Assembly: GCA_964445355.1 (NCBI GenBank)
Contig: CAYUKQ010000003.1
Span: 3,693 to 67,692 of the forward strand
From: an uncultured Gammaproteobacteria bacterium
GTDB lineage: Bacteria > Patescibacteriota > Microgenomatia > CAYQLK01
Length of the DNA: 64,000 nucleotides
Direction of reading: 5' to 3'
A program made the translations under genes and the position numbers. The stretch's first letter is position 1, and each line of letters opens with the position of its first letter. Shown here one piece after another: positions 2,801 to 53,142 of this stretch. The notes under the pieces are model-generated. The model did not search any database. It had not been told where the DNA came from and was given only the letters and a program-made list of their open reading frames with translations.

Positions 2801-2891
2801 GTTTATCAAAACGTTACGCATTCCCCTGAGGAACCGGCGGTATTGGTGGGCACGCCAGCCGCAAGATCGAATTCCTGTACTGCTAAGCGAC

Positions 2892-5200: not shown

Positions 5201-5285
5201 GTTGGTTGTTGTGGGGGTCAGAAGCTTGCTGATCTTTCGAGCGTTTCTGGCCCTCTAGGCTGAACGGCCCGGAGGAGTCGTGCTG

Positions 5286-5819
5286 CTAGGGATGGAAGAA
5301 GTGGGCGACGAGGTTGCCTTTGTGGCTCTCGGTCAGTACATGGTATTCCCACGTGCCCCAGATCGACCATTCGGGATTGCCGACGTAGCGCGGATCGTTT
5401 TGGCTAACGATTTGGTAGTGATACGCGCCGTTGCCGTCGTATCCGCTGCAGTGGATCATGTTCGAAATGACCCCATGGTCCATGTAGGGGTCGTTGTTGA
5501 AGTCGCCCTTGGTGTGGATGCGATAGAAGCAGGTCGAGAGTGTGTCGGCGTCGAGGTCGGCGATTTCGGTGATGCCGGGAGAAGTGTAGACTCGCCCATC
5601 GCCGAGATCCCAGTAGTAGTCACCTGTCGCGTCGTAGGCGTAGATGCTGTCGTACGTGCACACGACCTGGACACCGGCATCGCCGATGCCGTTATGGTCG
5701 GTGTCCCCGTTGCGGGGAATCATGCAGTTCGTGTTCTTGCCGCCGGCGGCCGAGACGGTCGCGGTTGTGACGAGCATGAGGCAGAAGAGTGCGGTGGTGA
5801 TCAGGATGAGTTTACGCAA
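5286..5819 (-). CDS. Secreted small Cys-, Asp- and Gly-rich protein, GC-rich cassette gene (TTG start, signal peptide)
   Basis: N-terminus MRKLILITTALFCLMLVTTATVSAAGG; about 58% GC; own promoter and terminator. Confidence 0.6.
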   Translation of the reverse strand: MRKLILITTALFCLMLVTTATVSAAGGKNTNCMIPRNGDTDHNGIGDAGVQVVCTYDSIYAYDATGDYYWDLGDGRVYTSPGITEIADLDADTLSTCFYRIHTKGDFNNDPYMDHGVISNMIHCSGYDGNGAYHYQIVSQNDPRYVGNPEWSIWGTWEYHVLTESHKGNLVAHFFHP

Positions 5820-5947
5820 GGTCAGAGTTACTCCTGTTTTTTGCAGAGATGTGAAAGATCAAAATGTTTCGCCCCCACGGCGGAACAAGTGCATTTTTGA
5901 CCAGAGCCAGCGGTTAAGCAGGTCCGGATCAATCAGTGCGATTGCGA

Positions 5948-9397: not shown

Positions 9398-11161
9398 ATG
9401 CTTGAATCTGAAAAGGTAAGAAGTATTGGCGGAATTGAGAGCCCATCGGCAGAAAATATCGAACGGGAGAGTAAGTTTTTGGTTCGTGATCTAGAGAGTG
9501 TGCCGTTTTCTGAAGCGAGTGGAGAGAAAATTCATCAGGGATATTTGTATATCGGTGAAAATGGGGATGAGCTGCGTGTAAGACAAAAGGGTGAAAAATA
9601 TTATTTGACTAGAAAAAGCGGTTCTGGGTTAGTACGTGAGGAGGAGGAAGAGCAGATTACAGAGGATGAATTTGAGCTTTTATATCAACAAACAGAAGGG
9701 TTAAGAGTCGAAAAGACCAGACATATTGTTAGGCATGGCGATTTTTTAATAGAAGTTGACGTATTTGAAGGCGGTTTGGATGGTTTGGTTACTGCGGAGG
9801 TGGAATTTGATGACGAGGCTAAAAGTTTGGGGTTTGTTGCGCCTAATTGGTTGGGAGAGGATGTCACTGAATCGGGTCTATATTCGAATCAAAGATTAGC
9901 AAAATTATCTCAACAACTTGATGCGACTGATGAAGGAGCTAGTGTTGAAGTTGTCAGACGTGATACCGAGCCGTATAGATTTGGACTGAAAGAAGGGATG
10001 AATTTGCTAGTTGAAAAAACGGGTAATGATATGAGATCCGGGCAGGTTGTTGTTGCAGTAGCTGGCGGTTCCGCTTCAGGGAAAACAAGTCAGGTTGCGG
10101 ATAAATTGGTTCATGCCTACCAAGGGAATTCAGTAATGCTGTCGATGGATGATTACAGTAGAGGAAGCAAGTATGTCGATCGTTTGAAACAGCAAGGAGT
10201 TGAGATCAATTACGACATGCCGGATTATATTGATATCGATCTGATGGCAAGGCATTTGGCACTTTTGAAAAACGGAATGAGTGTTTGGGTGCCGAAGTTT
10301 GATTTTTTGACCGGTGAGCCGTCTGAGCAAAGGCGCTTGATTAAGCCCGAGGACCTGATTGTTGTGGAGGGGTTGTTTGCACTTGATGAAAGAATCGCCA
10401 GGTTATCGGATACGAATGTGTTTGTTGATATTAGTATGCATGGTCGGGCGGTGAGGCGGTTTTTTCGGGATGTTAAAAGAACGAGCATGATACCTAAGGA
10501 TATAATTCGGTATTTTGCTGAGGTGGTTGAGCCGATGCATGATAGGTATGTGTTAAGCGGGATGAAGCAGGCGGATGTGGTGATCGAGAATGAATATGAT
10601 CCTCAGATTGAATCAGGTGATGCCGGTCATCGCGAGTTGCAGCTAAAGTTTGAATCCGCGCTGCGTGAAGAGGATGTGATAAAAGTTGGAGGAATCAAAA
10701 TGGACGAATATGAACAGGCGGACGGTTATTATGAGCCATTTGATCCGGTGCTCAGAGGAAGAGGGGAAAGTCTGAGGATTCGACGAGAAGGTGATAAGGT
10801 GCTGTTTACCTATAAAGGTCCAAGACGGGATTCTGGAGTGAGGAAACGTGACAGATTTGACGCAGTCATTGACGAGCAGACCGCAGAGATATTTGTGAAG
10901 AAGTATGGGGTATGTGTTATGGAGTTATTAAAAAAACGCAAAGTATTTAGCTTAGGATCAATGAGTGTGGCGATCGATCGGGATTTGATCAGAATGACCC
11001 AAGATGGGGCGGAGTTTTTGCCAGATCATGTAGAAATTTGCCTGGATAGAGAAGAGATCACTGAAAGTGATAGGATGTTATTAGATAGATTAGGGTTAAA
11101 TATGGCAGATGCAGTAATCGAATCTTATCAGGATTTGTTGAAAGGAACGGTGGAATTATGA
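9398..11161 (+). CDS. Tri-domain protein: CYTH (triphosphate tunnel) - uridine/cytidine kinase-family P-loop kinase - CYTH
   Basis: N-terminal IERESKFLV and LRVRQKGEKYYLTRK (CYTH); VVAVAGGSASGKTS, LSMDDYS, NYDMPDYIDIDLM, LIVVEGLFAL (Udk/PRK family); C-terminal ELQLKFES and LRIRREGDKVLFTYKGP (second CYTH). Confidence 0.75.
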   Translation: MLESEKVRSIGGIESPSAENIERESKFLVRDLESVPFSEASGEKIHQGYLYIGENGDELRVRQKGEKYYLTRKSGSGLVREEEEEQITEDEFELLYQQTEGLRVEKTRHIVRHGDFLIEVDVFEGGLDGLVTAEVEFDDEAKSLGFVAPNWLGEDVTESGLYSNQRLAKLSQQLDATDEGASVEVVRRDTEPYRFGLKEGMNLLVEKTGNDMRSGQVVVAVAGGSASGKTSQVADKLVHAYQGNSVMLSMDDYSRGSKYVDRLKQQGVEINYDMPDYIDIDLMARHLALLKNGMSVWVPKFDFLTGEPSEQRRLIKPEDLIVVEGLFALDERIARLSDTNVFVDISMHGRAVRRFFRDVKRTSMIPKDIIRYFAEVVEPMHDRYVLSGMKQADVVIENEYDPQIESGDAGHRELQLKFESALREEDVIKVGGIKMDEYEQADGYYEPFDPVLRGRGESLRIRREGDKVLFTYKGPRRDSGVRKRDRFDAVIDEQTAEIFVKKYGVCVMELLKKRKVFSLGSMSVAIDRDLIRMTQDGAEFLPDHVEICLDREEITESDRMLLDRLGLNMADAVIESYQDLLKGTVEL

Positions 11162-11709
11162 AGCGGGCGCCGGTGGGGGTAAAAATTCATCATATAAATA
11201 TTCGTCAGAGTATTTCGATCATTTTGCTTAAGCTGGTATTGCTGGAGCTGATTGCTTCTTCAGGGTTTTTGTTTGTGTATTTTAGTTTTGATAGTGAGCT
11301 TATCAGAATGAGTATGCTTAATTTGTTTGAGACTTTTTTCGGTTGGATATTTTTGGTACTGATGCTGGTTAAGATTTTTATTACGGTCTATATAATTCTG
11401 GACTGGCTGAATATGTATTACGAAGTTAATGGTGAATATATTTATATAAGAAAAGGAGTGATTTGGACGACCGAGCAGAAGTTTGCGATCGAAAATTTTG
11501 GTGATGTTACGCTTGAACAAAGCTTGATGGGGAGGATATTTAATTTCGGAAATATTAGGATCTTTGATAAGGAGCTGAAAAGAGACTTTTTGCTTTATCT
11601 GATTCATAATCCGAATAAATATTACGAAATATTAAGCTCGATTAATCCTGCCGGGGACAAAGAAAAGAGAGTGATTCGCCAACATTTCAGTTCGGATATT
11701 GATCTGTAA
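11158..11709 (+). CDS. Membrane protein with bacterial PH domain (bPH_2/YdbS-like), ATGA-overlapped with the upstream gene
   Basis: Two N-terminal TM helices followed by IRKGVIWTTEQKFAIENFGDVTLEQSLMGRIFNFGNIRI (bPH_2-like). Confidence 0.6.
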   Translation: MKRAPVGVKIHHINIRQSISIILLKLVLLELIASSGFLFVYFSFDSELIRMSMLNLFETFFGWIFLVLMLVKIFITVYIILDWLNMYYEVNGEYIYIRKGVIWTTEQKFAIENFGDVTLEQSLMGRIFNFGNIRIFDKELKRDFLLYLIHNPNKYYEILSSINPAGDKEKRVIRQHFSSDIDL

Positions 11710-26491: not shown

Positions 26492-26575
26492 GCCGGGGTG
26501 GCGGAATTGGTAGACGCGCACGTCTCAAACACGTGTGAAAGCAATTTCATGAGGGTTCAAGTCCCTCCTCCGGCA
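26492..26575 (+). tRNA. tRNA-Leu (anticodon CAA), class II with long variable arm
   Basis: Cloverleaf traced by hand: acceptor GCCGGGG/CTCCGGC, anticodon loop CTCAAAC, T-arm GAGGGTTCAAGTCCCTC, discriminator A. Confidence 0.85.
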
Positions 26576-26603
26576 CTTGATGGATTTGGTAAGTTGAAGG
26601 TTT

Positions 26604-27449
26604 GTGAGTGATAACTTGAAAATGCAACATTATATTAATGGTAATTGGGTTGGAGAGGATGGGTTGGTGGTCCCTGTGAGGGATTTGGGTTTTTTGAGAG
26701 GTTTTGCGGTTTTTGATTTTTTGAGAACTTACAATGGTAGACCTTTTAAGTTAGTCGAGCATGTTGATCGTTTGTATAATTCTGCTGGTCTGATCGGCTT
26801 GCGAATAAAGCAATCAAAAAAGGAGGTCGTAGAGTTGGTAGGTGAGGCTTTGGAGAGGAATGCGAATGGGCAGGAAAAGTTTATTAAAATAATTGTTTCC
26901 GGTGGGGTATCTAATTCTATGATCGCAAGTGGTGAATCGACGATCGTGATCATGATCGACAATTGTGTTGTTTATCCAGTAGACAATTATGAAAATGGGG
27001 TTGGAGTCATTACGGTTAAGTTTGAACGATATATTCCCGAGGCAAAGACTAATAATTACATTGAGGGTGTTCATCAGTCGCAAATTGCCAAAGAGTCTGG
27101 CGCTGTCGAGCCCGTGTATTATAACGATCAGCAGGTTTTTGAAGGGTCGAATAGTAATATTTTTGCTTTGATCGAAGGTAAATTACTTACCCCCAAGAGT
27201 AATATCCTTAAAGGAATTACTCGCCAGGTATTGTTGGAAATTCTAAACTTGGACGTAGATGTGGTAGAAAAAGATTTTGATATTGAACAATTAAGGTCGG
27301 CGAGTGAAGTATTTTTTACCGGCAGCGGAAAAGAAGTTACACCAATTACCAAGATAGATTTGGGGTTTGTCGGAGACGGTATGGTAGGGTCATTGACTCG
27401 AGAGGTGGTTAAGCAGTTTCGAGAATATACCCAAAGTAGAAGGTGGTAA
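26604..27449 (+). CDS. Fold-type IV PLP aminotransferase (branched-chain or D-amino-acid aminotransferase, or ADC lyase family)
   Basis: Class IV signature region EVFFTGSGKEVTPI and overall length and pattern. Confidence 0.7.
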   Translation: MSDNLKMQHYINGNWVGEDGLVVPVRDLGFLRGFAVFDFLRTYNGRPFKLVEHVDRLYNSAGLIGLRIKQSKKEVVELVGEALERNANGQEKFIKIIVSGGVSNSMIASGESTIVIMIDNCVVYPVDNYENGVGVITVKFERYIPEAKTNNYIEGVHQSQIAKESGAVEPVYYNDQQVFEGSNSNIFALIEGKLLTPKSNILKGITRQVLLEILNLDVDVVEKDFDIEQLRSASEVFFTGSGKEVTPITKIDLGFVGDGMVGSLTREVVKQFREYTQSRRW

Positions 27450-27513
27450 TGTTCTGAGAATAGACAGTTATAGGCTGTTGTAGTAGTATTTCCTGCAGCA
27501 CATTAACGGGAAG

Positions 27514-28386
27514 GTGGTAGAAAGAAAGGTCATGACGGTAACTCCCTGGGACGCGAAAAGCCGTATCGTTGTCGCGCTCGACACACAAAGGATCGAGGAG
27601 GTGACAGCAATCGTCACCGAGCTCGCTTCCTACGTCGGTTTGTTTAAAGCCGGATTCGAGTTGACGAATGCGGTTGGAACCGAACGGGCTCATCGAGCCA
27701 TCAGAACTGCCGGGGGCGAGGTCTTTGCAGATCTTAAGCTTCACGATATTCCCAACACGGTGTCAAAAGCCGTGCAGGCTGTTGTGGGCTTCGGTCCGCG
27801 GATGACCAACATGCACATCCAGTCCGGCGATGAAGCGATGCAGAAGGCGGTATCCGAGCGTGGTGAAAGTCAACTGCTTGGGGTATCCGTTCTGACGTCG
27901 TTGACACCACTCGAAGTTTTAGAGATGTTCGTCAGACCGTTCGTCCAGGCTATCGGCGGTGACGAGTCAGCGTTCGATCTTGCAGTTTACGGCAGTCTTG
28001 TCGACGAAGACAGGACAGTAAAACCTGTTGGGTCGACACTTCAGTCAGAGTACATGCAGAGGTTGGTGCTTGGTTTTGCCGAAAAGGCGGCCAAAGCTGG
28101 CCTTGACGGACTGATCTGCTCTCCAAAAGAGCTATCATACCTGAAGTCGCACGGATCACCTGCAGTACAGCGTTTGGTCAAGGTGGTACCGGGTATCCGT
28201 ATGGTTGACGGTCAGGTTGATGATCAGAACCGTGTCGGTACGCCATATCAGGCAATCGTCGACGGGGCGGATTATCTCGTGATCGGCCGTCCGATTTTGC
28301 AAGCATCCGACAAGGTGGCTGCGGCTCAGGCGTTTGCTCGCGAGATCGAGTCGGCGCTCAAAGACATGGAGACGGGACAAGATTAA
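27514..28386 (+). CDS. pyrF: Orotidine 5'-phosphate decarboxylase (long form), GC-rich; probable true start ATG 27532
   Basis: VVALD and FADLKLHDIPNTV OMP decarboxylase motifs; about 57% GC. Confidence 0.85.
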   Translation: MVERKVMTVTPWDAKSRIVVALDTQRIEEVTAIVTELASYVGLFKAGFELTNAVGTERAHRAIRTAGGEVFADLKLHDIPNTVSKAVQAVVGFGPRMTNMHIQSGDEAMQKAVSERGESQLLGVSVLTSLTPLEVLEMFVRPFVQAIGGDESAFDLAVYGSLVDEDRTVKPVGSTLQSEYMQRLVLGFAEKAAKAGLDGLICSPKELSYLKSHGSPAVQRLVKVVPGIRMVDGQVDDQNRVGTPYQAIVDGADYLVIGRPILQASDKVAAAQAFAREIESALKDMETGQD

Positions 28387-28413
28387 GCGAAGAAAGGTAG
28401 AGAGGAGTGGCAG

Positions 28414-29073
28414 ATGACAAGTGATGAACGGGTACTGCGCCAGCTTTTGACCGAGACGGGTGCGTTGGTTGTCAACACACACGTCAAATTGGCCTCGGGC
28501 AGACACAGTGACCGATACATCGAAAAAACAGCCCTTTTGAGAAGGGCGGATCATTGCCAGGTCATCGCTGACATGATCGTTCAAAACTTCATTAACAAAG
28601 GGGTCGAAGTGGTCATCGGGCCCGCCATTGGCGCGGTTGGACTAGCCGCTATTGTCGCCCTGAGAATGAGTCAGGGGCGGATTGGTTCGGCTAACGTCGA
28701 ATGGGGGTTTGCAGAGCCGGTTCGTGATTCCGGTGGCCAGCTGGTCCTCTACGAGCTGAAGCGCGGATTCGCGCAGATGGTTGAAGACAAACGTGTGCTG
28801 GTGGTCGAGGATATCGTAACCTCGGGCATATCGAGCAATCTGGTTGTCAAAGCCGTGCGAGCAAATCGTGGCAAGGTTGTAGGCTTGGGTGTCATTATCA
28901 ACCGTGGGAGAGTAACTTCTGCGGATGTTGGACATCCGGGCAGTTTTCGGCCGCTGATGACGGTTGATATGCCAAGCTATGATTCCGAGGACTGCCCTCT
29001 GTGCCTCAGAGGTCTGCCGATCAGTACGCAGTATGGTCACGGCGGCAAAGCCGTGCTGCCGGCCTCGATCTGA
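28414..29073 (+). CDS. pyrE: Orotate phosphoribosyltransferase, GC-rich
   Basis: PRTase motif VLVVEDIVTSG; about 57% GC. Confidence 0.85.
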   Translation: MTSDERVLRQLLTETGALVVNTHVKLASGRHSDRYIEKTALLRRADHCQVIADMIVQNFINKGVEVVIGPAIGAVGLAAIVALRMSQGRIGSANVEWGFAEPVRDSGGQLVLYELKRGFAQMVEDKRVLVVEDIVTSGISSNLVVKAVRANRGKVVGLGVIINRGRVTSADVGHPGSFRPLMTVDMPSYDSEDCPLCLRGLPISTQYGHGGKAVLPASI

Positions 29074-29140
29074 AAAAGCAGCCCATAAAAACCACTCTTG
29101 CCAATATGGTGAGATGTGGAAAGAATTCGTGTCGGGTAAA

Positions 29141-29192
29141 AAGAGAGCACCTGTGTCGGTTACGTGCCGATTAACGCTCTCTTATTTTTTAA
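29141..29192 (+). terminator. Rho-independent terminator (AAGAGAGC...GCTCTCTT then ATTTTTT) closing the pyrF-pyrE GC-rich patch
   Basis: 8-bp stem plus T-run; GC drops afterwards. Confidence 0.6.
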
Positions 29193-29234
29193 ATTTGTAA
29201 ATTAAACCTAAATTTGTTATTTTGACGGTCGAAT

Positions 29235-29798
29235 ATGATTAAACCAGTCACAGATCTTAAAAAAGGCGTCGTTTTCAGAGAAGACGGGGAGCTTTGGATT
29301 GTTGAAAATTACGAACATATTAAAGTTGCAAGAGGATCCGGAACCATTAAGGTCAAGGCTCAGAGTATGCGTACTGGGGCAATAACCGAAAAATCGTTTA
29401 TGACCGGAGCCAGAGTTGATATTGTTGATGTTTTCAAGCGAAAGGCGACATATCTTTATCAGGATGGGAACAAATATTATTTTATGGATACCGAGAGCTT
29501 TGAAAATTATGAAGTCGACCAGGTAATGATTAGTGGCGTAAAGTTTCTCAAAGACGGAATGGAAGTGCGGGTACTGATCGATGATTTAGGTAAATTGGTG
29601 GGTTTGGAGATGCCGAAGAATGAAACGTATGTTATTACTGAAACAGCAGTTGGAGTGAAAGGTAATACGGTTTCTAATACGAACAAAAAAGCAATTTTGG
29701 AGAATGGTTTTGAGGTTAGTGTGCCGTTGTTTGTTAATACCGGCGATACGGTTAAAATTGATACCAGAACAGGGGCATATCTTGAGCGCGTTCAGTAA
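29235..29798 (+). CDS. efp: Elongation factor P
   Basis: KKGVVFREDGELW ... KVKAQSMRTGA EF-P N-terminal domain pattern. Confidence 0.9.
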   Translation: MIKPVTDLKKGVVFREDGELWIVENYEHIKVARGSGTIKVKAQSMRTGAITEKSFMTGARVDIVDVFKRKATYLYQDGNKYYFMDTESFENYEVDQVMISGVKFLKDGMEVRVLIDDLGKLVGLEMPKNETYVITETAVGVKGNTVSNTNKKAILENGFEVSVPLFVNTGDTVKIDTRTGAYLERVQ

Positions 29799-36630: not shown

Positions 36631-36639
36631 CGCCCGTTT

Positions 36640-37990
36640 AGCTTTCTGTATATCCTATAGTAATTAAATAAAATTAATTCTCATTGATCGTAATGGGTCT
36701 TGCGGATTGAGAGAAATTTCTATTGAGATCAAGACAATTAGAAAAGATAAGAGAAGGGGTGAAAAGAGAAAAATTGGATACCGATATTGAGATAGGGAAG
36801 TAAGGCGATTTAGCTTTAATGTTTGAATTTTTGATATAGTTTGATATACTTGTGAAAAATAGCGTGAAAACAAGTGTGAAAACTGATGACAGTTAAAGGC
36901 GGGGAGTGACAAACGTGTGTTTGTGGATAACTTATTTTGATCGTAGCTGGTCTTCGTCTGTTTAAGTAGGTGGTCATCTTGCCCTGTGTGATGCTTACAA
37001 GTATTGTTCTCTGTCAATTAGGTTGGAGTATGAAAATAGCTTTAAAATTGAGTGTTTATCCTATTGTAACAATCTAAATTATTAACATAAGACTCGAATA
37101 TTATAGGGTCTATTTAGCCTTGAATGCAGAGGTGTGTTGGTATCAGGTAGTAAGGGTGTAGGGACTAATAGCATTAATCAAGAACAAGGTAAAAGGATAG
37201 ATTGATTGAGCTTGTTATCTAGATCTGCACTGCTCCCAAGATAAGTGAGTCAGAAGTAAAAAATGATATGTCGTACAATATAACTTTTGCGACGTAAAAT
37301 AAAAAAAATGGAGTGGGGTTGAAAACCAATAAAAATTAGAAAAAACTTAAAAAAATGTTTTTTGAAAATTTTTTTTCTTTGATATATTTTGATTCTGCTT
37401 TCTTTTTTTCTGGGCCTATGATGATTAATTTGATATAGTTTTATACAATTGTGTAAATTTATATATTTTTTGCGGGATTTATGAGGTAAATGGCTGTAAA
37501 AATTAAAATTTATCCGATAGACTACCCTGCCCGACTAATAAAAAGCCGTTTTAGGCCCAATCAGGGGCTTTTAGCCTCAAATACTCGGTATTTTACAGCT
37601 GAGGTGGTATAAATCTTACTTGATTCCTGGACATTAAATATTCGGAGGCCAAATACTTGTTTGTTAAAAGGATTGTTTCGGAGATTATCGGTTTCTTGGC
37701 AAAATTATCCATAATCAGGCGGATTGTCTTGCTGAGTCTAGTCGTTGCAGTGCTTGCAAGCGCGACCGCTTGGATTGTGACTCAGGATGTGTCGTGGGCT
37801 TATGTAACGTTGTTCCTTGGAGCTTTTGCTTGGGCGGCTTTTGGTACCTCTGTTACACAAATCTCTCGGCTTGATTAAGGTTTTCGTCGCCTTGTACCGG
37901 TTTTTTAAATCTTAACCCACTATTTTTTGATGGGTTTAAGAATTGACTGACCGGTTTTTCTTAAAAAGTGATATGTCGCACAATGTGATA
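36640..37990. other. 1.35-kb AT-rich non-coding region with a perfect DnaA box (36922-36930 TGTGGATAA), several 7-8/9 DnaA-box-like sites, AT-tract (37320-37410), repeated TTGATATAGTTT and GTGAAAA elements and two copies of GATATGTCG(T/C)ACAAT
   Basis: No ORF over 75 aa on either strand; motifs read directly from the sequence. Confidence 0.5.
37657..37878 (+). CDS. Possible small two-TM membrane protein (TTG start, GGAGG RBS)
   Basis: 73-aa ORF with two hydrophobic helices; weak. Confidence 0.3.
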   Translation: MFVKRIVSEIIGFLAKLSIIRRIVLLSLVVAVLASATAWIVTQDVSWAYVTLFLGAFAWAAFGTSVTQISRLD

Positions 37991-38000
37991 GAGTGGATAT

Positions 38001-38972
38001 ATGGAGACTCCCAAAAACTCGTTAAAAGAAAAAACTGATAAGTTTGAGAAAGAGATTAGGGAGTTTTTGGAGTATTTGGAGGTTGAGCGTAATGTCTCTC
38101 CCCTAACGATTAGGGACTATAAACATTATTTGGAAGTATTTGCCAGCTGGGCAAACGAAAATAATATTAGTGACATCGAAAGTGTTGATATTAAACAGAT
38201 AAGGTCGTTTCGATTGTTTTTATCAAGAAAATTAACGCAGGACGGCGAGCCTATTAAAAAAATAACCCAGAATTATTATGTGATTGCCCTAAGGGCAATG
38301 TTAAGGTTTTTGGTCAAGAATGATCGGGAGGTCTTGTCTCCAGACAAGATCGAGCTCGGTAAGCAGGAGGGTCGACAGGTAAAGTTCTTGACTCAGGATC
38401 ATTTGAATCGGTTGTTGAACAGTCCGAATATTAATAGTTTAAGCGGGTTAAGGGATAAGGCTATTTTGGAGATGCTTTTTTCGACCGGATTGCGTGTTTC
38501 TGAGATGGTTAGTTTGGACCGTGATTCGATAGATTTAAATTCGGGTGAATTTGGAGTTATGGGAAAGGGCCGCAGGGTTCGAGTGGTGTTTTTGTCGCCA
38601 GATTCTGCCACTTGGATTGCAAGATACCTCAATGCTCGGGATGATCATTACGAGCCGTTATTTGTTAGATTTAAGGGTAAAAAGTCGATTGTGGATGATG
38701 ATGAGAGCCACAGGTTAACCTCTAGGAGCATTCAAAGAATCGTTGAAAGTTATGTTAAAAAAGCACAGCTACCAATAAAAGCAACTCCGCACACTTTAAG
38801 GCATTCTTTTGCGACGGATCTATTGAATAATGGTGCTGATATTCGAAGTGTACAGGAGATGTTGGGACATAAAAATATTGCGACCACTCAAATATATACC
38901 CACGTAACGAATCGTCAGCTTAGGGAGGTGCATCAGGCTTTTCATTCAAGAAAAAAGAATGCGGACGAATAG
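38001..38972 (+). CDS. xerC: Tyrosine site-specific recombinase, XerC/XerD family
   Basis: C-terminal catalytic region HTLRHSFATDLL ... LGHKNIATTQIYTHV with the tyrosine nucleophile. Confidence 0.85.
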   Translation: METPKNSLKEKTDKFEKEIREFLEYLEVERNVSPLTIRDYKHYLEVFASWANENNISDIESVDIKQIRSFRLFLSRKLTQDGEPIKKITQNYYVIALRAMLRFLVKNDREVLSPDKIELGKQEGRQVKFLTQDHLNRLLNSPNINSLSGLRDKAILEMLFSTGLRVSEMVSLDRDSIDLNSGEFGVMGKGRRVRVVFLSPDSATWIARYLNARDDHYEPLFVRFKGKKSIVDDDESHRLTSRSIQRIVESYVKKAQLPIKATPHTLRHSFATDLLNNGADIRSVQEMLGHKNIATTQIYTHVTNRQLREVHQAFHSRKKNADE

Positions 38973-39053: not shown

Positions 39054-39386
39054 TCAGCACCAGAGTGATGTTTGGCAGACCAGAATGGTTGGCATAAACA
39101 AGAGGTCGTCGAGGTGCCATCGAGGCTGGGCATGCCTGACGCTTTTTGCAGCGCCAGTCAGCAGTTCGTAAGCCAGTTCGGGGGCCATGGTCAGGTCCTT
39201 GCCGGGTTCGCGCTTGGACACGATTGGGATCTGATCCAGGTCGAAATTGATTTGTGCAAGGCGATAGGTGGGTTTGTCCGGGCTTGGCTGGACTGGTTGG
39301 CCGTTAAAGTCGGTAAATATCGGGCGATGACGGAAAAGAACCAGACTCAGTCCGCGGCGGTTGGTACTGTTTTCAAAAAACACCAA
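39054..39386 (-). CDS. GC-rich hypothetical ORF; reading frame stays open upstream to about 39546 (directly after the SIMPL gene stop) with no canonical start before TTG 39386
   Basis: Protein-like 110-164-aa frame in a 57% GC patch; start unresolved. Confidence 0.4.
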   Translation of the reverse strand: MVFFENSTNRRGLSLVLFRHRPIFTDFNGQPVQPSPDKPTYRLAQINFDLDQIPIVSKREPGKDLTMAPELAYELLTGAAKSVRHAQPRWHLDDLLFMPTILVCQTSLWC

Positions 39387-40739: not shown

Positions 40740-41497
40740 AGAGTTGTGGTCGGGGCGCAGTCCGTCAGGACCGAGCCCCGTCTATTTGCGGGTGGCATTT
40801 TCCGCTGCCGGCTTTGGCTCGCGATTGAGCCGGTGCCCACAGTCGGGGTTCATGCCCCCATGGTTTTACCTCGCGATCGAGGCCGCTGCCTTGTGCGTCA
40901 CGGCAGAAACGGTGGCGGCTGTTTTAAGGCGGCCACTTTTGGTCAATCGCAACGAGACTTTGTATCTCGGTGCGGGCCGGCCATATTCGCGGGCGGCCTT
41001 CGCTAGTGCCAGAGGATGACGGCACATTTTTGACATCTCCGGGGAGCGCGGACGGGCTGTCCGCGCTCCTTGCGGTCCCGAAAGCCCTCGGGACAACAGG
41101 TGAAAAAGGACAGGCACGGATAAGCCATAACCACTTTTTGCGCAGGTGGGTACCCGAGTCTCATGCGTAGAGACGCGAAGCCTGAACACCAGTGCTTGGT
41201 TGGTTTTGGCAGAGAGACACCAATTCTCTTCGTCCCCCCCCCAGAATAGGGAGTTCAGAGGAGTTATTAGTGTCAGCAAATCGTTCTCCTTGTCGATTCC
41301 GTGACGCATCCTGCCCCGCGCCCCTTTTCCCGACTAATCGGTAGGATCCCAGTGTGGGTAGTCCAGGGGGAAGCGCTTAGAGATATCAGTGTAAAAAACT
41401 GGATATTCCTAAGTGTTTCTCCCTGGATGGCTTTTGAAGCAGGAGTGCAAAGTCCTGATGATTTTTATATGTGCACAGCTAAAACAAATTAACTGCG
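40740..41497 (-). ncRNA. GC-rich (about 58%) transcribed unit of about 0.76 kb with no credible ORF: candidate structured ncRNA or decayed cassette. Contains a G9/C9 homopolymer (41234-41242) and two perfect hairpins (41043-41069, 41075-41094)
   Basis: Bounded by the consensus promoter (41504-41543) and the terminator (40704-40739); only ORF-like frames are low-complexity and overlap on both strands. Confidence 0.4.
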
Positions 41498-46143: not shown

Positions 46144-46250
46144 TTAATCTGGTTGTTTAGTATTGATTAGATCAATTTAAGGGTGTAATTTAGCCTCGAA
46201 TGAGACTAAAAGATTCTAGCATAGGCCTAAGCTTTAAGGCAAATTGACAA

Positions 46251-46293
46251 TAAAAAAAGACCCGAATTTACCGTTTATAGATAAATGCGGGTC
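46251..46293 (-). terminator. Rho-independent terminator on the minus strand (GACCCG...CGGGTC then T7) after the Nudix gene
   Basis: Hairpin plus A-run on plus, i.e. T-run on minus. Confidence 0.55.
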
Positions 46294-46319
46294 GGTGGTC
46301 GGGTTCTGTTTCGGCGTTG

Positions 46320-46841
46320 TTACTTCATCCGCCTGGTTTTTGCAATCACTGTTTGCCGGATGAAGACCGCCTGTTCTTGGATGATGTCTTCGGGCAGTCT
46401 GCTTACCGGGAAAAACTGTCCGACTGTGGGTGTGCTTTGAGCCAGTGCCGTGTGAATGATCGAGAGACCAACGCCGCGGGTAACTCCATGGAAGTACATA
46501 CCGGTGTGTGTCGGACGGCTGATGGACATGCCACCGAGCTCTTCGCTGACGATTCGGTTGATGGCCAGATCGAAGCGGTCGCCCGGCTTGTCGAGGTCTG
46601 TTGCACGCAGGAGCGTGCCCGGTACGTGCCATAGTCCCGGGAAGTAGGGGTCGTCCTCTTCCCTTTTGGTTAGGAGGACTTCCGACTGCTTCGCTGTCGG
46701 GTGGAAGATTACCAGTTCGATGTACGGCAGGGCCATTGTTTCTGCAATCGCGTAGAAAACTTGCGGTGGCAGAAGTTGGCCGTGAAAGCTGCGCAGGTAC
46801 TCTGCGACAGCATCATCAGACGGCTTGTGGTCTGTTCCCAA
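46320..46841 (-). CDS. Nudix-family hydrolase, GC-rich cassette gene
   Basis: Nudix box G(X5)E(X7)REUXEEXGU matched by GTLLRATDLDKPGDRFDLAINRIVSEELGG; about 58% GC. Confidence 0.7.
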   Translation of the reverse strand: MGTDHKPSDDAVAEYLRSFHGQLLPPQVFYAIAETMALPYIELVIFHPTAKQSEVLLTKREEDDPYFPGLWHVPGTLLRATDLDKPGDRFDLAINRIVSEELGGMSISRPTHTGMYFHGVTRGVGLSIIHTALAQSTPTVGQFFPVSRLPEDIIQEQAVFIRQTVIAKTRRMK

Positions 46842-47729: not shown

Positions 47730-49505
47730 TTGCTAACCAAAAAATTTATGCCTGCTACTGCCCCCAATTTGGTTGGAGCGATGCAATCCGCTCCGGCTAA
47801 GACGCTTACGACAATCGAAGACATTCTGCTTAGTCAGAATATTCTCAAGAAAAAAGATTACGACCAGCTAAAGCTAGAGGTTGTTTCGACCGGTAAGAAG
47901 GTTGACGATCTTTTGAAAGAAAAAGAGCTGGCGACAGATCAACAAATAGCCGAGGCGAAATCGATCCTTTTTGGTGTCCCATATGTGCAGATCGCCGGTA
48001 AGACGATCTCGCCGGATGTTTTGACCCTGGTTCCTGAGCAGGTTGCCAGGCAGTACGGAATGATTCCATTTGAGAGACATTTGAATGATCTTTGGGTTGC
48101 GCTGGACGACCCGCTTAATCTTCAGGTTGTGAAATTCCTTGAGCAGCGGACAAATATGGGTATTAAGGTCTTTTTGTCCGGTGAGAATGAGATCAAGGAT
48201 GCGATTGCGCTTGCCTACTCCCAAAGTTTGACTGGTGATATTGGCGAGGTCTTGAAAGAGGCAAATACAAGTGTAGTCGCAAGTGAAGCTGGGGTTAATA
48301 AGGTCAAGGCTGAAACGCTTTATAATGCTCCAATTGCTAAGGTTGTTTCACAGCTTTTGGAATATGGAATCAAAATCAAGGCTTCAGATATTCATATTGA
48401 ACCAATGGAAGATAAAGTTCGCGTGCGATACCGAATTGATGGAATTTTGCATGAGAAATTGATTCTTCCGAAAAAGGTTCATGAAGCGATCACAACACGT
48501 ATCAAAATTCTGGCAAAACTAAAAATTGACGAAAAGCGTCTGCCACAAGATGGAAGATTTGATTTTGAATCGGGACAGGAGGCAATTGATTTGCGTGTAT
48601 CGAGTTTGCCGACGACTTGGGGAGAGAAAGTGGTTATGAGACTTCTTAAAAAGTCCGGAGGTATACCGACTTTGTCCGATTTGGGATTGAGAGGTTCGGC
48701 ATTAAAAAACGTTGAAACGCAATTGACACGTCCGCACGGCGTTATGCTTATTACCGGACCAACCGGGAGCGGTAAAACGACCACACTCTACTCTGCTTTG
48801 GCACGACTGAATACAGCAAAAGTCAACATTCTTACGCTTGAAGATCCGGTCGAGTACCAGATCGCCGGGGTTAATCAGGTACAAATCAATACCTTAGCCG
48901 GTCTTACTTTTGCTTCCGGACTGAGGTCTTTTTTGAGACAAGATCCCAACATTATTATGGTTGGTGAAATTCGAGACGAGGAAACCGCCGATTTGGCTGT
49001 GCAGGCGGCGCTGACTGGGCATATGGTTTTTTCGACTGTTCATACAAATAATGCCGCAGGGGCATTACCGAGACTGTTGGATATGAAAATTGAGCCTTAT
49101 TTGATCGCCAGTTCGATTACAGCCGTTATCGGTCAGAGGGTTGTACGTAAGATCTGTGTAAGTTGCCGGGAACAGTATATGCCGGTTCCGGAGGTGGCGA
49201 CGGATATCAGAAATGTTTTAGGTAAGCTTTTGGATATCAAATTAAGTCAGGGACAGATGATTCTCTATCGGGGAAAGGGCTGCGAGGAATGTAACGGCAC
49301 CGGTTATTTAGGGCGAATCGGTATTTATGAAGTATTAATTCTTAATGAAAAAGTCGGCAGATTGATTCTCGAACGGGAAACCAGCGAGTCGATCGAGCGA
49401 CAAGCAATTGAGGATGGAATGGTGACGATGAAGCAGGATGGGTATTTGAAGGTTGTCGAGGGTATTACGACGATCGAAGAAGTATTAAGGGTGGCCCAAG
49501 AATAA
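47730..49505 (+). CDS. pilB: Type IV pilus assembly ATPase PilB (GspE family) with N-terminal GSPII_E_N domain
   Basis: Walker A GPTGSGKTTT, Asp box, His box, tetracysteine CVSC...CEEC motif. Confidence 0.9.
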   Translation: MLTKKFMPATAPNLVGAMQSAPAKTLTTIEDILLSQNILKKKDYDQLKLEVVSTGKKVDDLLKEKELATDQQIAEAKSILFGVPYVQIAGKTISPDVLTLVPEQVARQYGMIPFERHLNDLWVALDDPLNLQVVKFLEQRTNMGIKVFLSGENEIKDAIALAYSQSLTGDIGEVLKEANTSVVASEAGVNKVKAETLYNAPIAKVVSQLLEYGIKIKASDIHIEPMEDKVRVRYRIDGILHEKLILPKKVHEAITTRIKILAKLKIDEKRLPQDGRFDFESGQEAIDLRVSSLPTTWGEKVVMRLLKKSGGIPTLSDLGLRGSALKNVETQLTRPHGVMLITGPTGSGKTTTLYSALARLNTAKVNILTLEDPVEYQIAGVNQVQINTLAGLTFASGLRSFLRQDPNIIMVGEIRDEETADLAVQAALTGHMVFSTVHTNNAAGALPRLLDMKIEPYLIASSITAVIGQRVVRKICVSCREQYMPVPEVATDIRNVLGKLLDIKLSQGQMILYRGKGCEECNGTGYLGRIGIYEVLILNEKVGRLILERETSESIERQAIEDGMVTMKQDGYLKVVEGITTIEEVLRVAQE

Positions 49506-49546
49506 ATAGATATGCAAGAATTGAATTACAAGTTAAAAACAAAAAT

Positions 49547-50608
49547 ATGATGTCGATACAGCAACTATTAGAGACGGTAATTAAAAAAGATGCAAGTGAT
49601 CTGCACCTGGTAGTTGGTCAGCCTCCGATGTATCGGGTCGATGGTGATTTGACGGCAATTCCAGGTGAGGATATTTTGACATTAGAAGCGGCTCAGGTGT
49701 TGATATTTGATCTGTTGACTAGCGAGCAAAAGGAGTTGATCTTGGTAAATAAGGAGTTAGATTTTTCTTTTGGATTGGGTGATGTAGCGAGATTTAGGGT
49801 GAATGCCTATTATCAAAAAGGTTATCTATCGGCTTCTTTGAGGTTGATTCCGTCTAATATTAAGACGATCGAAGAGTTACAGCTACCGAAGAGTTTGCAT
49901 AATTTTGCCAAGATGAGGCAGGGTTTTGTGCTGGTAACTGGTCCAACCGGCCATGGAAAATCGACAACTTTGGCTTCGATCATTAATGAGATTAATCTTG
50001 ACAATCCGATGCATATTTTGACGATCGAGGATCCGATCGAGTATGTCTATCCCCGAGGAAGGGCACTGGTTTCACAGCGTGAATTGCATTTGGACACGCA
50101 TTCCTGGGATATTGCCTTGCGTTCTGCTCTGCGTGAGGATCCTAATGTAGTTTTGGTTGGTGAGATGCGAGACTATGAAACGATTGCGGCGGCATTGACA
50201 ATTGCCGAGACCGGACATTTAGTGTTTGCGACGTTACACACTAATTCTGCTTCACAGACTATCGATAGAATTGTGGACGTTTTTCCCGAGAACCAGCAGG
50301 AGCAGGTCAGGATTCAACTTAGCAATACCCTAGCCGGAATTGTTTCGCAGCGATTGATGCCGGCAATGGGCGGAGGGCGAGTTCCGGCGGTTGAAATATT
50401 AATCGGAACGCCGGCGATCAGGAATCTGATTCGCGAGGGTAAAACTCACCAAATTGATTCAGCACTTCAAACGTCGAGTGAGCAAGGCATGGTTACGCTT
50501 GATGCTTCACTTGCAACTCTTATTAAGGCTGGCAGGATTTCTGAAGAGGTTGGACTTTCCTACTCGACCAGGCCAGATCAGTTAATGAGATTAGTTAGAG
50601 GCGTATAA
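49547..50608 (+). CDS. pilT: Type IV pilus retraction ATPase PilT
   Basis: GPTGHGKSTT Walker A, PilT-type AIRNLIREGK motif. Confidence 0.9.
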   Translation: MMSIQQLLETVIKKDASDLHLVVGQPPMYRVDGDLTAIPGEDILTLEAAQVLIFDLLTSEQKELILVNKELDFSFGLGDVARFRVNAYYQKGYLSASLRLIPSNIKTIEELQLPKSLHNFAKMRQGFVLVTGPTGHGKSTTLASIINEINLDNPMHILTIEDPIEYVYPRGRALVSQRELHLDTHSWDIALRSALREDPNVVLVGEMRDYETIAAALTIAETGHLVFATLHTNSASQTIDRIVDVFPENQQEQVRIQLSNTLAGIVSQRLMPAMGGGRVPAVEILIGTPAIRNLIREGKTHQIDSALQTSSEQGMVTLDASLATLIKAGRISEEVGLSYSTRPDQLMRLVRGV

Positions 50609-50617
50609 AAATAATTA

Positions 50618-51829
50618 ATGGCAAATTTTTTATATACAGCTAAGGCGGTCAACGGAGATACCGTTAAGGGTTCGGTCGAGGCGAGTAATGTCGACCAGGC
50701 ACTTAACGTCATTCGTCAGAATAATCTAACCCCGATTACGATCACGGAGAATAAAAAAGGCGGACTGAGCAACCTGTCGTTTGGCAGTTTGTTCGGGAAG
50801 GTAAGCGAGGGTGATGTGGCGGTATTTACCAGACAGCTTTCAAGTATGGTTAATGCAGGCCTGCCTTTTGCTGAGAGCATGAATATTCTCAAAAAACAGA
50901 CTAAGAATGCGCATTTTTCTGCGGTTTTGGATCAAGTCGGAAAGGATGTTGAGGGTGGAATGAGTTTGGGGGGTGCGATGGGTAAGCATCCAGATGTATT
51001 CAGCCGTGTTTATGTAAATTTGGTTAAGGCTGGTGAGGCCGGTGGTGTGATTGATAAAATCTTTGCCAGACTGGCAGACTCTTTGGAAAAATCGCGAAGC
51101 TTCCATAGTAAAGTAAGAGGAGCTCTACTCTATCCGGCTATTTTGTTAGTACTGATGTTTGTAGTTATATTTGTGATGATGGTTTTTGTGATTCCTAAGC
51201 TAGCAGATCTTTACAAGGACATTGGTGCGGATCTGCCGCTGCCGACATTGATACTGATCGGAGTGTCTGAGTTTTTTGTTAATTTTTGGTATCTGATTAT
51301 TGGTGGTGTGGTGGGGTTGGTATTTTTTTATCAATATTGGGGTAAGACCGAATCGGGACGGGCGTTCTTTGATGATTTGAAGCTGAAAATTCCGGTATTT
51401 GGAAGAATAAATCGGGGAATAATCTTAGTGGAATTTACCAGAACTTTAGGATTATTGCTTGAGGCCGGAGTGCCGATAATTGAGTCATTAAGAATCAGCA
51501 CAGGCATTGTAAACAATGTTAATTATGAGAAGGAGCTCTATTTGTCGATCGACAAGATCGAAAAGGGAGCACAATTGTATGATCAGATCGATCAGTCCGA
51601 TATTTTCCCTCCGATCGTTTCGCAGATGGTAAAAGTGGGTGAAGAAACCGGTAAGCTGGATGACGTATTGAATCGTTTGGCGAATTATTTTGAAGCCGAG
51701 GCTGATCAGCTGGTGAAAAATGTCACTACGGCTCTGGAGCCGTTTATTTTGGTTATCTTAGGATTAGGGGTGGGGTTATTGGTTATTTCGATTATTCTGC
51801 CAATCTACAATCTTACAAGCAAATTTTAG
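50618..51829 (+). CDS. pilC: Type IV pilus platform protein PilC (GspF family)
   Basis: Duplicated GspF domain, three TM segments. Confidence 0.9.
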   Translation: MANFLYTAKAVNGDTVKGSVEASNVDQALNVIRQNNLTPITITENKKGGLSNLSFGSLFGKVSEGDVAVFTRQLSSMVNAGLPFAESMNILKKQTKNAHFSAVLDQVGKDVEGGMSLGGAMGKHPDVFSRVYVNLVKAGEAGGVIDKIFARLADSLEKSRSFHSKVRGALLYPAILLVLMFVVIFVMMVFVIPKLADLYKDIGADLPLPTLILIGVSEFFVNFWYLIIGGVVGLVFFYQYWGKTESGRAFFDDLKLKIPVFGRINRGIILVEFTRTLGLLLEAGVPIIESLRISTGIVNNVNYEKELYLSIDKIEKGAQLYDQIDQSDIFPPIVSQMVKVGEETGKLDDVLNRLANYFEAEADQLVKNVTTALEPFILVILGLGVGLLVISIILPIYNLTSKF

Positions 51830-51857
51830 AAAAATTCTTGAAAGGAGGTGAAATATT

Positions 51858-52409
51858 ATTAATAAGCAAATAAAAAGAGGTTTTACCTTAATTGAACTTC
51901 TGGTTACTATCGCGATTATTGGTGTGTTAGCTGGTGTCGTTTTGATTGCAATCGACCCTGCAAAGCAGATCCAGCGCGCTGGTGATGCCGGACGTAAATC
52001 TGATATTTCACAGATTGCCGGAGCCTTAGAGGCGTATGGTGTTTCACACAATGCGATCTATATTCAAGGTGTAACCGGTTCGTTGTCCGGTGCGGTTGAA
52101 GGCGCGGCAAGCGCGGGTACCTGGGATTCTACCTTAGTTACTTCGGGTGAGATCAAAAACGTGCGTGATCAAACGGTTGTTTATGATTCAACAGCCGCAG
52201 GTACGACATTTAGGGTCTATCGTCAGTTAGCAGCGACCCAATTGGCCTGGGAAGAAGGCGCTAATGACCAAGCAGGTGGTGGAGCAACTACGACTTGTTC
52301 AGCTGCTTACCCTGGTGGTTCAGCTGCGGTGTTCTATGTCTATGACACCACGGCCGGAAAGCCATACTGGCACTGTCATGCGTCTGGTACGGCTCCAACT
52401 GCCCTGTAA
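51858..52409 (+). CDS. Type IV (major) pilin with class-III prepilin leader (M)NKQIKRG|FTLIELLV and C-terminal Cys pair. Apparent ATT start (ORF track starts at internal GTG 51924)
   Basis: In-frame TGA at 51849-51851; GGAGG RBS at 51844-51848; only ATT/AAT codons precede the conserved G|FTLIE cleavage motif. Confidence 0.7.
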   Translation: MNKQIKRGFTLIELLVTIAIIGVLAGVVLIAIDPAKQIQRAGDAGRKSDISQIAGALEAYGVSHNAIYIQGVTGSLSGAVEGAASAGTWDSTLVTSGEIKNVRDQTVVYDSTAAGTTFRVYRQLAATQLAWEEGANDQAGGGATTTCSAAYPGGSAAVFYVYDTTAGKPYWHCHASGTAPTAL

Positions 52410-52490
52410 AGGTATGTATAGAAAAACTGCCCGTTTTCTATGGGTTCTAGGTATTGAGTTGTTCATAGGATAGACACTTACTTAGAATCC

Positions 52491-53111
52491 ATGGCTTGGG
52501 GCGGAAGTAATAATAGAATGCATAAGGGTTTTACATTAATTGAATTATTAATAACCATATCCTTGGTTGGGGTTTTGTCTGGGATCGCCTTTAGTTTGGT
52601 CGATCCGGCTTCACAAATTGCCAAAGCAAAAGATACTTCGATAAAGGCTGAAATAAGTCAGATCGCTGGCGCGATGGAGGCTTACGGAGCGGAAAATAAC
52701 GGGAAATATATTCTGGGTGTCACGACTGCGCCGGCAAACCCAGGTACACTTTCGGCTCCAAACGAGGGATGTGCGGGTACTTCGACCATGTGTCCAGGAG
52801 GTGTAAGCGGAGATCGGGGTTGGGACGAAATATTGGTCGCAAGCAAAATCGTTAAAGAGGTAAGAAATAAGGGGCTAGTTTATGATTCGGATAGTAGCGG
52901 ATCAAGATTCAGGATTTATGCTCTGCTTAATGCGACAAAGATCGAAGGCGAAAAAGGTCGTGAGGACACAACATTTTCGCCAAGCTGTTCGTCTGCTACA
53001 TATACTTACGGAAATAATTCCGAAGTATATTTTGTATACGATTCGTTGATTCGTAAAACCTACTGGTGGTGTACTTCAGCCGGTCCAGTTTGGCCGAGAC
53101 CAAGTTTATAA
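52491..53111 (+). CDS. Second type IV pilin paralogue (leader ...MHKG|FTLIELLI; alternative start ATG 52518), C-terminal disulfide pair
   Basis: Prepilin N-terminal motif and hydrophobic alpha1 helix. Confidence 0.8.
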   Translation: MAWGGSNNRMHKGFTLIELLITISLVGVLSGIAFSLVDPASQIAKAKDTSIKAEISQIAGAMEAYGAENNGKYILGVTTAPANPGTLSAPNEGCAGTSTMCPGGVSGDRGWDEILVASKIVKEVRNKGLVYDSDSSGSRFRIYALLNATKIEGEKGREDTTFSPSCSSATYTYGNNSEVYFVYDSLIRKTYWWCTSAGPVWPRPSL

Positions 53112-53142
53112 AATACTTCAAAAAGTTATAATCGCATTTAAT

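Follow-up and report, generated by a model that had tools for sequence, protein, structure and literature searches.

How does a GC-rich pair of pyrimidine genes come to stand between AT-richer neighbours in a bacterium of reduced genome, and why does the pair still differ in composition from its host? Patescibacteria, which include the candidate phyla radiation (CPR), are thought to be host-dependent for nucleotides, and the question is raised here by a pyrF–pyrE pair on contig CAYUKQ010000003.1 of assembly GCA_964445355.1. We analysed 64,000 nucleotides of this contig (positions 3,693 to 67,692 of the forward strand; hereafter the window, with position 1 as its first letter). The two genes very probably encode the last two enzymes of uridine monophosphate (UMP) synthesis, judging from family models, conserved residues and gene order. 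Our reading, to which we assign a probability of roughly 0.7, is that positions 27461–29190 are a laterally acquired, self-contained unit that represents an old, clade-wide insertion and has been kept by purifying selection. The enzymes themselves belong to known families; the cassette is old, clade-specific and still GC-rich.

Locus and composition

The composition profile of the window shows a sharp step, in which GC content rises from about 0.40 to 0.54–0.56 between approximately 27,450 and 29,150 and then returns to 0.40. Within the step lie two separate, co-directional genes on the forward strand with 27 nt between them, pyrF (27532..28386; GC 0.545) and pyrE (28414..29073; GC 0.553). GC at third codon positions (GC3) is 0.59 in pyrF and 0.605 in pyrE, against a window median of 0.42, and GC at first (0.62–0.64) and second (0.41–0.43) codon positions is likewise elevated. 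The genes on either side are host-like: the upstream aminotransferase has a GC content of 0.400 and efp, downstream, of 0.399, matching the figure of about 40% given for both in an initial annotation of this DNA. The same annotation put the block itself at 57% GC; the step is confirmed, although positions 27500–29195 measure 53.8%. Only 0.9% of 1696-bp windows match this value, and the sole other such region lies at about 500–2500.

The junctions are reproducible. In five independent Logan assemblies PyrE is identical and is joined to pyrF and efp in the same way, and one of the assemblies examined (L001) also carries a partial upstream open reading frame (ORF) at the position of the aminotransferase, supporting that junction. 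The block is therefore not an assembly chimera, and contamination is ruled out as well, the junctions being common to the five assemblies and to at least ten related contigs. Pfam annotation of the ORFs in the 64-kb window found no pyrB, pyrC, pyrD or carAB, so the initial statement that no other pyr genes occur here stands.

A single insertion in one clade

A DnaB search was used to place the host. It returned four species representatives at 91–93% identity and then, after a gap, Patescibacteria only, at 64% or less. The distant neighbours include Curtiss-, Woyke-, Woese-, Beckwith-, Gottesman- and Amesbacteria, lineages that we take to be Microgenomates-type CPR on established taxonomy. That all DnaB neighbours are Patescibacteria, and mostly Microgenomates groups, bears out the earlier supposition of a reduced-genome host. 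The public records are less consistent in their titles: L015–L018 (CAYOLO01, CAYQLK01, CAYROP01, CAYGIG01) and many ‘binchicken’ TPA records are called ‘uncultured Gammaproteobacteria’ or ‘Pseudomonadales’. Other named DnaB matches are mostly Patescibacteria, and the loci with these titles show the common order metallo-beta-lactamase (MBL)-DnaB(-efp); the titles give the impression of placeholders or wrong labels.

The cassette occupies the same slot in at least ten diverged relatives. The order DnaB, tRNA-Leu, pyrF, pyrE, a small ORF that we call orf90 (present in some members), efp and lgt is found in L006, L009, L012, L013 and L015–L018, and in the tight clade it continues as efp-lgt-lspA-rluD. 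Two further loci, L103 and L104, repeat this ORF order from MBL via DnaB to orf90, and L095 and L173 carry partial versions. Outside these carriers the cassette was not found: in a tblastn search of 76 other Patescibacteria loci, none had a homologue of PyrF or of PyrE in the interval from DnaB to efp. The MBL-DnaB-...-efp order is common among these cassette-free loci, and many keep MBL-DnaB-tRNA-Leu-efp. In three of them (L033, L068 and L058) the gap between DnaB and efp measures only about 160–210 bp, and in several outgroups efp directly follows DnaB and tRNA-Leu. All five cassette-free outgroup loci that were scanned for tRNAs have tRNA-Leu(CAA) between DnaB and efp. In the window this tRNA lies at 26492..26576 on the forward strand (ARAGORN and Rfam), outside the cassette, as the ancestral upstream landmark of the slot; the downstream bound is the host gene efp, encoding elongation factor P (29235..29798, forward strand; TIGR00038, 187.7 bits against a cut-off of 185.8).

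Presence and absence go with DnaB identity, which is more than 90% in the cassette-carrying clade and at most 64% in the cassette-free loci. A cassette common to the slot throughout the clade and missing from the 76 other loci argues for a single insertion, and the pair appears to have been inserted once, between tRNA-Leu(CAA) and efp, in the ancestor of one genus-level clade of Patescibacteria. The inserted unit would have comprised a promoter-like element, pyrF, pyrE and a terminator, and originally also a small zinc-ribbon ORF.

Age, descent and exchange between species

At the fourfold degenerate sites of 15 flanking genes, the window differs from every relative by 0.66–0.69, which is near saturation; NG86 estimates of synonymous divergence (dS) between the window and its relatives were not computable owing to this saturation. 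Given that the slot is shared and its flanks are nearly saturated, the insertion is therefore old and clade-wide. For the PyrF and PyrE proteins of the window, identity to the nearest relatives is only 57–78%, and these relatives all belong to the clade. The horizontal acquisition proposed in the initial annotation consequently stands in one part, the insertion itself, which the 76 cassette-free loci support; a gain by this particular genome does not stand, given the relatives that share the cassette and the divergence of its flanks.

The later history of the cassette was followed in two subgroups. In group A (L012, L015 and L016), silent divergence of cassette and flanks agrees, as for L012–L015 (dS 1.30 for the flanks against 1.15–1.23 for the cassette), and the cassette proteins have evolved at two to three times the average rate of the flanks. 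This agreement indicates that the cassette probably descended vertically in group A. In group B (L006, L009 and L013), fourfold differences reach 0.65–0.67 in the flanks, 0.44–0.48 in pyrF and 0.36–0.62 in pyrE, and distances of the two genes disagree within a single genome pair (L009–L006: dS 0.50 for pyrE and 1.34 for pyrF). Since the group B cassette is unsaturated between saturated flanks, and so younger than they are, and its genes are discordant, mosaic replacement between species of the clade is indicated. Taken over both groups, the cassette has been inherited mostly vertically and swapped between species in at least one subgroup. Uniform third-position GC and trees congruent with those of ribosomal proteins had been named as the pattern that would speak for native genes; GC3 is clearly not uniform, and silent divergence matches that of the flanks in group A, whose silent sites are unsaturated, and not in group B.

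Throughout this history both genes appear to have remained functional. Ratios of nonsynonymous to synonymous divergence (dN/dS) are 0.07–0.14 for pyrF and 0.11–0.15 for pyrE, compared with 0.03–0.04 for the flanks, a pattern that shows purifying selection with somewhat less constraint than on the flanking genes.

Why the cassette remains GC-rich

An insertion of this age that still stands out in composition calls for an explanation. In each of the seven genomes analysed, both cassette genes have a higher GC3 than even the most GC3-rich gene of the flanks; cassette GC3 is 0.48–0.66, host flank medians are 0.31–0.51, and the offset over the flank median ranges from +0.08 to +0.29. Codons ending in G and in C are both enriched, and the C-fraction of NNY codons is about 0.60 in every host regardless of host GC. 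Two candidate causes were rejected. Translational codon selection does not account for the high GC3, given that G-ending codons are enriched as well as C-ending ones, and neither does an mRNA that spares U or pyrimidines, coding-strand C+T being 0.47 in cassette and flanks alike, with A and T falling equally. The GC-richness would represent a foreign signature that has not equilibrated, and is either decaying from a very GC-rich source or held by a GC-favouring force.

The second of these possibilities, that active maintenance, and not a relic, lies behind the GC content, is compatible with an old insertion, and we entertain it tentatively. The maintaining force could be GC-biased gene conversion accompanying recurrent interspecies recombination, or selection at synonymous sites, and might act on Patescibacteria pyr genes generally. 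Polarised synonymous changes imply an equilibrium GC3 of 0.52–0.59 for the cassette and 0.36–0.51 for the flanks, with the same direction in seven of seven triplets, and in five of five triplets the flank rates predict more GC-to-AT or fewer AT-to-GC changes than the cassette shows (p 0.0002, 0.001 and 0.02 in three tests). The constant NNY C-fraction fits maintenance too, and recombination of the cassette between species, as described above, is directly seen. On the other side, the cleanest vertical triplet gives p values of 0.15 and 0.36, and parsimony polarisation is unreliable at such divergences. Neutral decay may also suffice: a rough calculation from these rates puts the depth of the clade at about twice the L012–L015 distance, at which decay from a donor GC3 of about 0.9–0.95 would still leave about 0.58.

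Loci elsewhere in the CPR bear on the same point in both directions. Four of five other CPR pyr loci exceed the GC3 of their hosts by 0.07–0.15, namely stand-alone or fused pyrF–pyrE in three lineages and a full pyr operon in a fourth. The fifth, a fused gene in the GC-rich host of L101, is lower than its host (GC3 0.46 against 0.61), which excludes a rule that pyr genes are always GC-richer in the CPR and fits genes that are foreign in either direction better than it fits a GC-raising force that acts universally. Patescibacteria pyr genes thus tend to look foreign, whether richer or poorer in GC, in keeping with the scattered distribution of nucleotide-biosynthesis genes over the Patescibacteria phylogeny (bioRxiv 10.64898/2026.06.21.733656); in the same study, 93% of the Patescibacteria genomes examined were without de novo nucleotide synthesis. 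It is conceivable, though we would not favour it, that pyrF–pyrE units form a recombining Patescibacteria gene pool whose synonymous composition is held at about 50–60% GC in any host. If that were true, the cassette would be a datable island that has resisted host composition past the silent-site saturation of its flanks. The locus offers a clean natural experiment on compositional change of foreign DNA with time, with a known site, empty outgroup sites, several diverged carriers whose hosts span a GC3 of 0.31–0.51, and documented exchange.

The pair is not the sole GC-rich block of the window. Further stretches with GC of 0.51–0.60 and GC3 of up to 0.72 occur at 226–3181, 5280–5900, 39054–39386, 40866–41309, 46234–46632 and 62542–62889. 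Their ORFs gave no significant Pfam match, and at 1430–2155 and 1490–2107 ORFs overlap on opposite strands, leaving the true coding frame ambiguous. These stretches may be foreign insertions or non-coding GC-rich DNA.

Relatives in other Patescibacteria and the question of a donor

Homologues outside the clade are distant. The best PyrF match is 42% identical and belongs to a fused protein of Paceibacterota, and the best PyrE matches, from Zambryskibacteria and Vogelbacteria, are 37–38% identical; matches from other phyla trail those from the CPR by just 2–4% identity. In a PyrF distance tree the clade is monophyletic and sits on a long isolated branch with no interpretable sister group, the apparent grouping looking like a long-branch effect. 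The high-GC donor suggested in the initial annotation finds no support in matches at these levels, barely above those of other phyla. A phage vector was also considered: 68 viral contigs encode PyrF, and none exceeds 37% identity. Nor could a donor be traced through orf90, an orphan restricted to the clade.

Similar gene pairs do occur elsewhere in the CPR. Stand-alone pyrF–pyrE pairs were found in L098 (Zambryskibacteria MHWL01) and L102 (Patescibacteria JBHPEM01), and PyrF-PyrE fusions of 435–457 aa in L096 (Paceibacterota; 10001–11308) and L101 (8001–9374). In the fusions the orotidine 5'-monophosphate (OMP) decarboxylase is N-terminal and the phosphoribosyltransferase C-terminal, an order that is the reverse of that in animal UMP synthase. 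All four loci lie in unrelated contexts with no other pyr genes within 8–10 kb; a Buchananbacteria locus (L100), by contrast with the window, holds a full pyrB-C-K-D-F operon together. We found nothing specific in the literature on orotate or pyrE in Patescibacteria or the CPR.

These relatives suggest an alternative in which the pair was ancestral to Patescibacteria, was inherited vertically, and was lost nearly everywhere except here. The nearest PyrF outside the clade by distance and the nearest named PyrE relatives all come from Patescibacteria, as listed above, and the order pyrF-then-pyrE recurs in other CPR lineages. We nevertheless consider such an origin unlikely, as the pair is missing from the DnaB-tRNA-efp slot in the 76 other loci, stands in unrelated contexts in the other lineages and is compositionally foreign in every host; the CPR margin over non-CPR matches is too slight to favour it, and the scattered distribution in the literature (bioRxiv 10.64898/2026.06.21.733656) also speaks against it.

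Identity of the two enzymes

The initial identification of the genes as pyrF and pyrE is upheld. From its ATG, pyrF encodes orotidine-5'-phosphate decarboxylase (OMPDC) of 284 aa, or 290 aa from an alternative GTG start at 27514. The protein matches PF00215 at 3e-41 (142.1 bits; cut-off 27) and passes TIGR01740 (139.5 bits; cut-off 92.3), and falls slightly under the cut-off of the full-length equivalog NF001273 (187.9 against 193) because an insert breaks the match into two stretches. Its best Protein Data Bank (PDB) matches are the bacterial OMP decarboxylases 3ldv, 3tr2 and 1eix, aligned in two blocks around the insert, with DLKLHDIPNT opposite DLKFHDIPNT of 3ldv. Across the clade and outgroups, an alignment shows D17, K39, D67-x-K69-x-x-D72, T122, S123, Q232, R234 and G252-R253-P254 to be invariant. 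The insert, of about 40–50 aa, is specific to the clade and was seen in no outgroup of the alignment.

The product of pyrE is a probable orotate phosphoribosyltransferase (OPRT) of 219 aa, of the Thermus-type subfamily and with a C-terminal CPxC motif that is also present in outgroup sequences. It passes PF00156 (42.1 bits; cut-off 26.3), and OPRT models are its best matches in NCBIfam, although it scores under their cut-offs: 108.6 bits for TIGR01367 pyrE_Therm, the best match (cut-off 150.25), and 60.9 for TIGR00336 (cut-off 106.8). In a PDB search with the single sequence, eight of eight matches were OPRTs or an OPRT-like phosphoribosyltransferase (PRT), all weak. A profile built from clade and outgroup sequences reached the OPRT 4paw at 4e-38; its 13 best PDB matches were all OPRTs, with adenine PRTs ranking behind them at 1e-13. 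The motif for binding phosphoribosyl pyrophosphate (PRPP), VLVVEDIVTSG, is intact and conserved, and the flexible loop bears a clade-specific insertion. Specificity for orotate is probable on these comparisons.

Linkage of the two genes provides a further line of evidence: they are neighbours throughout the clade, as they also are in L098 and L102, and form a single fused gene in L096 and L101, as expected for enzymes of consecutive steps. Could the pair nonetheless lie outside the UMP pathway, as a PRT of other specificity beside some other member of the OMPDC fold, for instance a KGPDC-like protein or a hexulose-phosphate synthase? The scores of PyrE under the NCBIfam OPRT cut-offs, the near miss of PyrF against NF001273 and its unusual insert would allow it. 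We judge this quite improbable, given that every OMPDC catalytic residue is invariant, that TIGR01740 is passed while the hexulose-phosphate synthase model scores just 20.5 bits, that OPRTs lead the profile search before any adenine PRT, and that the genes are adjacent or fused in four other CPR loci as well as in the clade.

The reading least able to survive has this genome gaining the pair recently from a high-GC source, and we give it hardly any credence: the GC step is sharp at both borders, and first- and second-position GC is raised, as would be expected had the proteins evolved against a GC-rich background, but the same cassette occupies the same site in relatives whose flanks are nearly saturated, its closest relatives are all in the clade, and among 5.8 billion proteins nothing outside the clade exceeds 42% identity for PyrF or 38% for PyrE. 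The locus shows that a sharp GC step alone does not imply recent transfer.

For the old, clade-wide lateral insertion that we prefer, certain observations must be set on the other side of the balance. No donor lineage was found in homologue searches or in the PyrF distance tree; with no donor named, a lateral origin is argued from distribution and composition and not from donor–recipient phylogeny. Neither att-like direct repeats at the cassette borders nor mobility genes were found, and the unit holds no integrase. The test for GC maintenance is just suggestive, 3 of 10 Fisher tests giving p<0.05 and the cleanest vertical triplet being not significant. Finally, besides scoring under both NCBIfam OPRT cut-offs, PyrE has VRDSG opposite AKDHG of yeast OPRT, with Arg where the template has Lys, a residue that we take to be the catalytic lysine of the flexible loop.

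Borders of the cassette

The tRNA next to the insertion raises the possibility of integrase-type insertion at a tRNA gene, which we rejected because there are no flanking direct repeats and the orientation of the tRNA varies. Relative to the window, tRNA-Leu is inverted in L006 (9775–9859), L009 (9774–9858) and L013 (1468–1552), and four of the five scanned outgroups carry it in the orientation opposite to that of the window's subgroup; the difference is a small local inversion beside the insertion site. The nearest integrase-family gene, XerC/D-like and conserved in relatives, lies at 38001–38972.

Between the tRNA and the cassette, the window carries a class IV aminotransferase gene (26604..27449, forward strand; PF01063, 1e-41) with host-like GC of 0.40, annotated as of the branched-chain or D-amino-acid type. 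It is missing from L006, L009, L012, L013 and L015–L017, in which the tRNA abuts the element upstream of pyrF, and is a secondary insertion seen only in the lineage of the window. At the equivalent junction L095 has a different gene of no assigned family. With an aminotransferase in one lineage and another gene in the other, the junction is therefore a local insertion hotspot.

Promoter-like element, terminator and orf90

Directly upstream of pyrF, a sigma-70 scan predicted a promoter-like element at 27461..27510 on the forward strand, with a -35 box TAGACA (27461–27466), a 17-nt spacer and a -10 box TAGTAT (27484–27489), followed by a conserved stretch with GCAGCACATTAA. An element of about 45 nt (CGACAGTTATAGGCTnTTGTAGTAGTATTT..GCACTTTAA) is found at this position in all clade members. 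It is nearly identical among them and conserved far more than the coding sequence, the PyrF proteins being just ~63% identical. The window has a single copy of it, with 0 expected, and its only two matches in the metagenome collection (L103 and L104) are both clade members with the same synteny. No Rfam family matched it. The initial annotation had seen only a degenerate TAGTATTT core of a cassette promoter here; those letters (27484–27491) lie within the conserved element, which is intact. Nor does such a promoter recur in the window, in which a 29-nt core was found once and a 14-nt core gave three loose matches against 0.7 expected. The element at 27461–27510 would thus be a putative promoter, and the conserved spacer hints at a putative operator. 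Control of pyrF by an upstream riboswitch, PyrR site or attenuator was rejected, as Rfam gave no relevant match at E<=10 and the leader (27490–27560) is less structured than shuffled controls (z +2.5).

The cassette is closed by an intrinsic-terminator-like hairpin with a U-run at 29141..29190 on the forward strand, in accordance with the earlier claim that the block has its own terminator. The hairpin proper (29141–29183) has a folding free energy of -19.9 kcal/mol (z -2.8), and 1 of 200 shuffles was as stable. It is kept in L173, and L095 has an equivalent hairpin and T-run.

In relatives, the third gene of the cassette is orf90, a GC-rich ORF whose orphan product measures about 90 aa and contains four CxxC motifs, which would form two zinc ribbons. 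Intact copies were found by tblastn between pyrE and efp in L006 (11551–11829), L009, L012, L013 (3218–3490), L015, L016 and L095 (~2012–2300). The family comprises 7 clusters among the 5.8 billion proteins, all confined to the clade, and its zinc-ribbon matches in Pfam are sub-threshold only. The window gave no tblastn match to orf90, and its closest relative, L173, is also without it. In both, a spacer of 161–183 bp with the conserved terminator stands where orf90 was lost; in the window, the remnant at the deleted orf90 position is 29074..29140 (forward strand).

Proposed role and comparison with known systems

From the enzyme families, PyrE would convert orotate and PRPP to OMP, which PyrF would decarboxylate to UMP. 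Since the pair has no further pyr gene in its neighbourhood, imported orotate would be the starting material, and orotate salvage is the most likely physiological role. This route could run alongside a uridine-kinase-type salvage enzyme at 9398–11161. The gene there encodes a 587-aa protein of the phosphoribulokinase/uridine-kinase family with a CYTH domain, possibly a pyrimidine nucleoside salvage enzyme. A conserved orotate-to-UMP unit kept by selection would distinguish a lineage that draws on one particular host metabolite in place of finished nucleotides.

The two proteins share with pyrF and pyrE products of the bacterial de novo UMP pathway the same folds, the DxKxxD motif and GRP loop of PyrF and the PRPP loop of PyrE. 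What sets the pair apart is its isolation, the 64 kb holding none of pyrB, pyrC and pyrD; the clade proteins also differ in the PyrF insert and in the sub-equivalog scores of PyrE. Where bacterial pyr leaders are controlled by PyrR or attenuation, Rfam and folding show no such site or leader in the window, and where a complete pyrB-C-D-F-E operon gathers the pathway, as most nearly in the Buchananbacteria locus, none is co-located here. The pairs and fusions of other Patescibacteria (L098, L102, L096 and L101) have the same pyrF-then-pyrE order and a composition unlike that of their hosts. They are only 34–42% (PyrF) and 29–38% (PyrE) identical, and are without the upstream element, the PyrF insert and orf90 of the clade.

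Horizontally acquired genomic islands beside tRNA genes offer a second comparison, being likewise blocks of distinct composition at a tRNA, restricted to one clade and placed at an insertion hotspot. In contrast to such islands, the cassette is only about 1.7–2.2 kb long and has no integrase, att repeats or mobility genes; its tRNA is ancestral and faces either way, and the cassette is old and fixed rather than strain-variable. A physical link between the same two activities is also known from the trypanosomatid OMPDC-OPRT fusion (PDB 3qw4), which is among the PyrE profile matches. Unlike that fusion, the window has separate genes, and we saw no specific kinship between the two.

Other features of the window

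A gene-poor gap of about 1.3 kb (36631–38000) separates a DUF5656 gene from the conserved XerC/D-like integrase-family gene. The gap is also present in L006 (19323–20649) and L013 (10830–12133), with non-coding blocks that are conserved far above neighbouring silent sites. Among these blocks, one stretch of about 38 nt (AATGATATGTCGTACAATATAACTTTTGCGACGT) is invariant, GTGAAAA motifs recur, and the sequence TGTGGATAA resembles a DnaA box. Rfam gave no match with a threshold of E<=1, and no reversal of GC skew is seen at this place.

Type IV pilus clusters are typical of CPR genomes, and a complete-looking one occupies 47730–59085. It includes two T2SSE ATPases, a T2SSF platform protein and a prepilin peptidase, together with four N-methyl pilin-like genes, a PilX-like gene and PilM/N/O.

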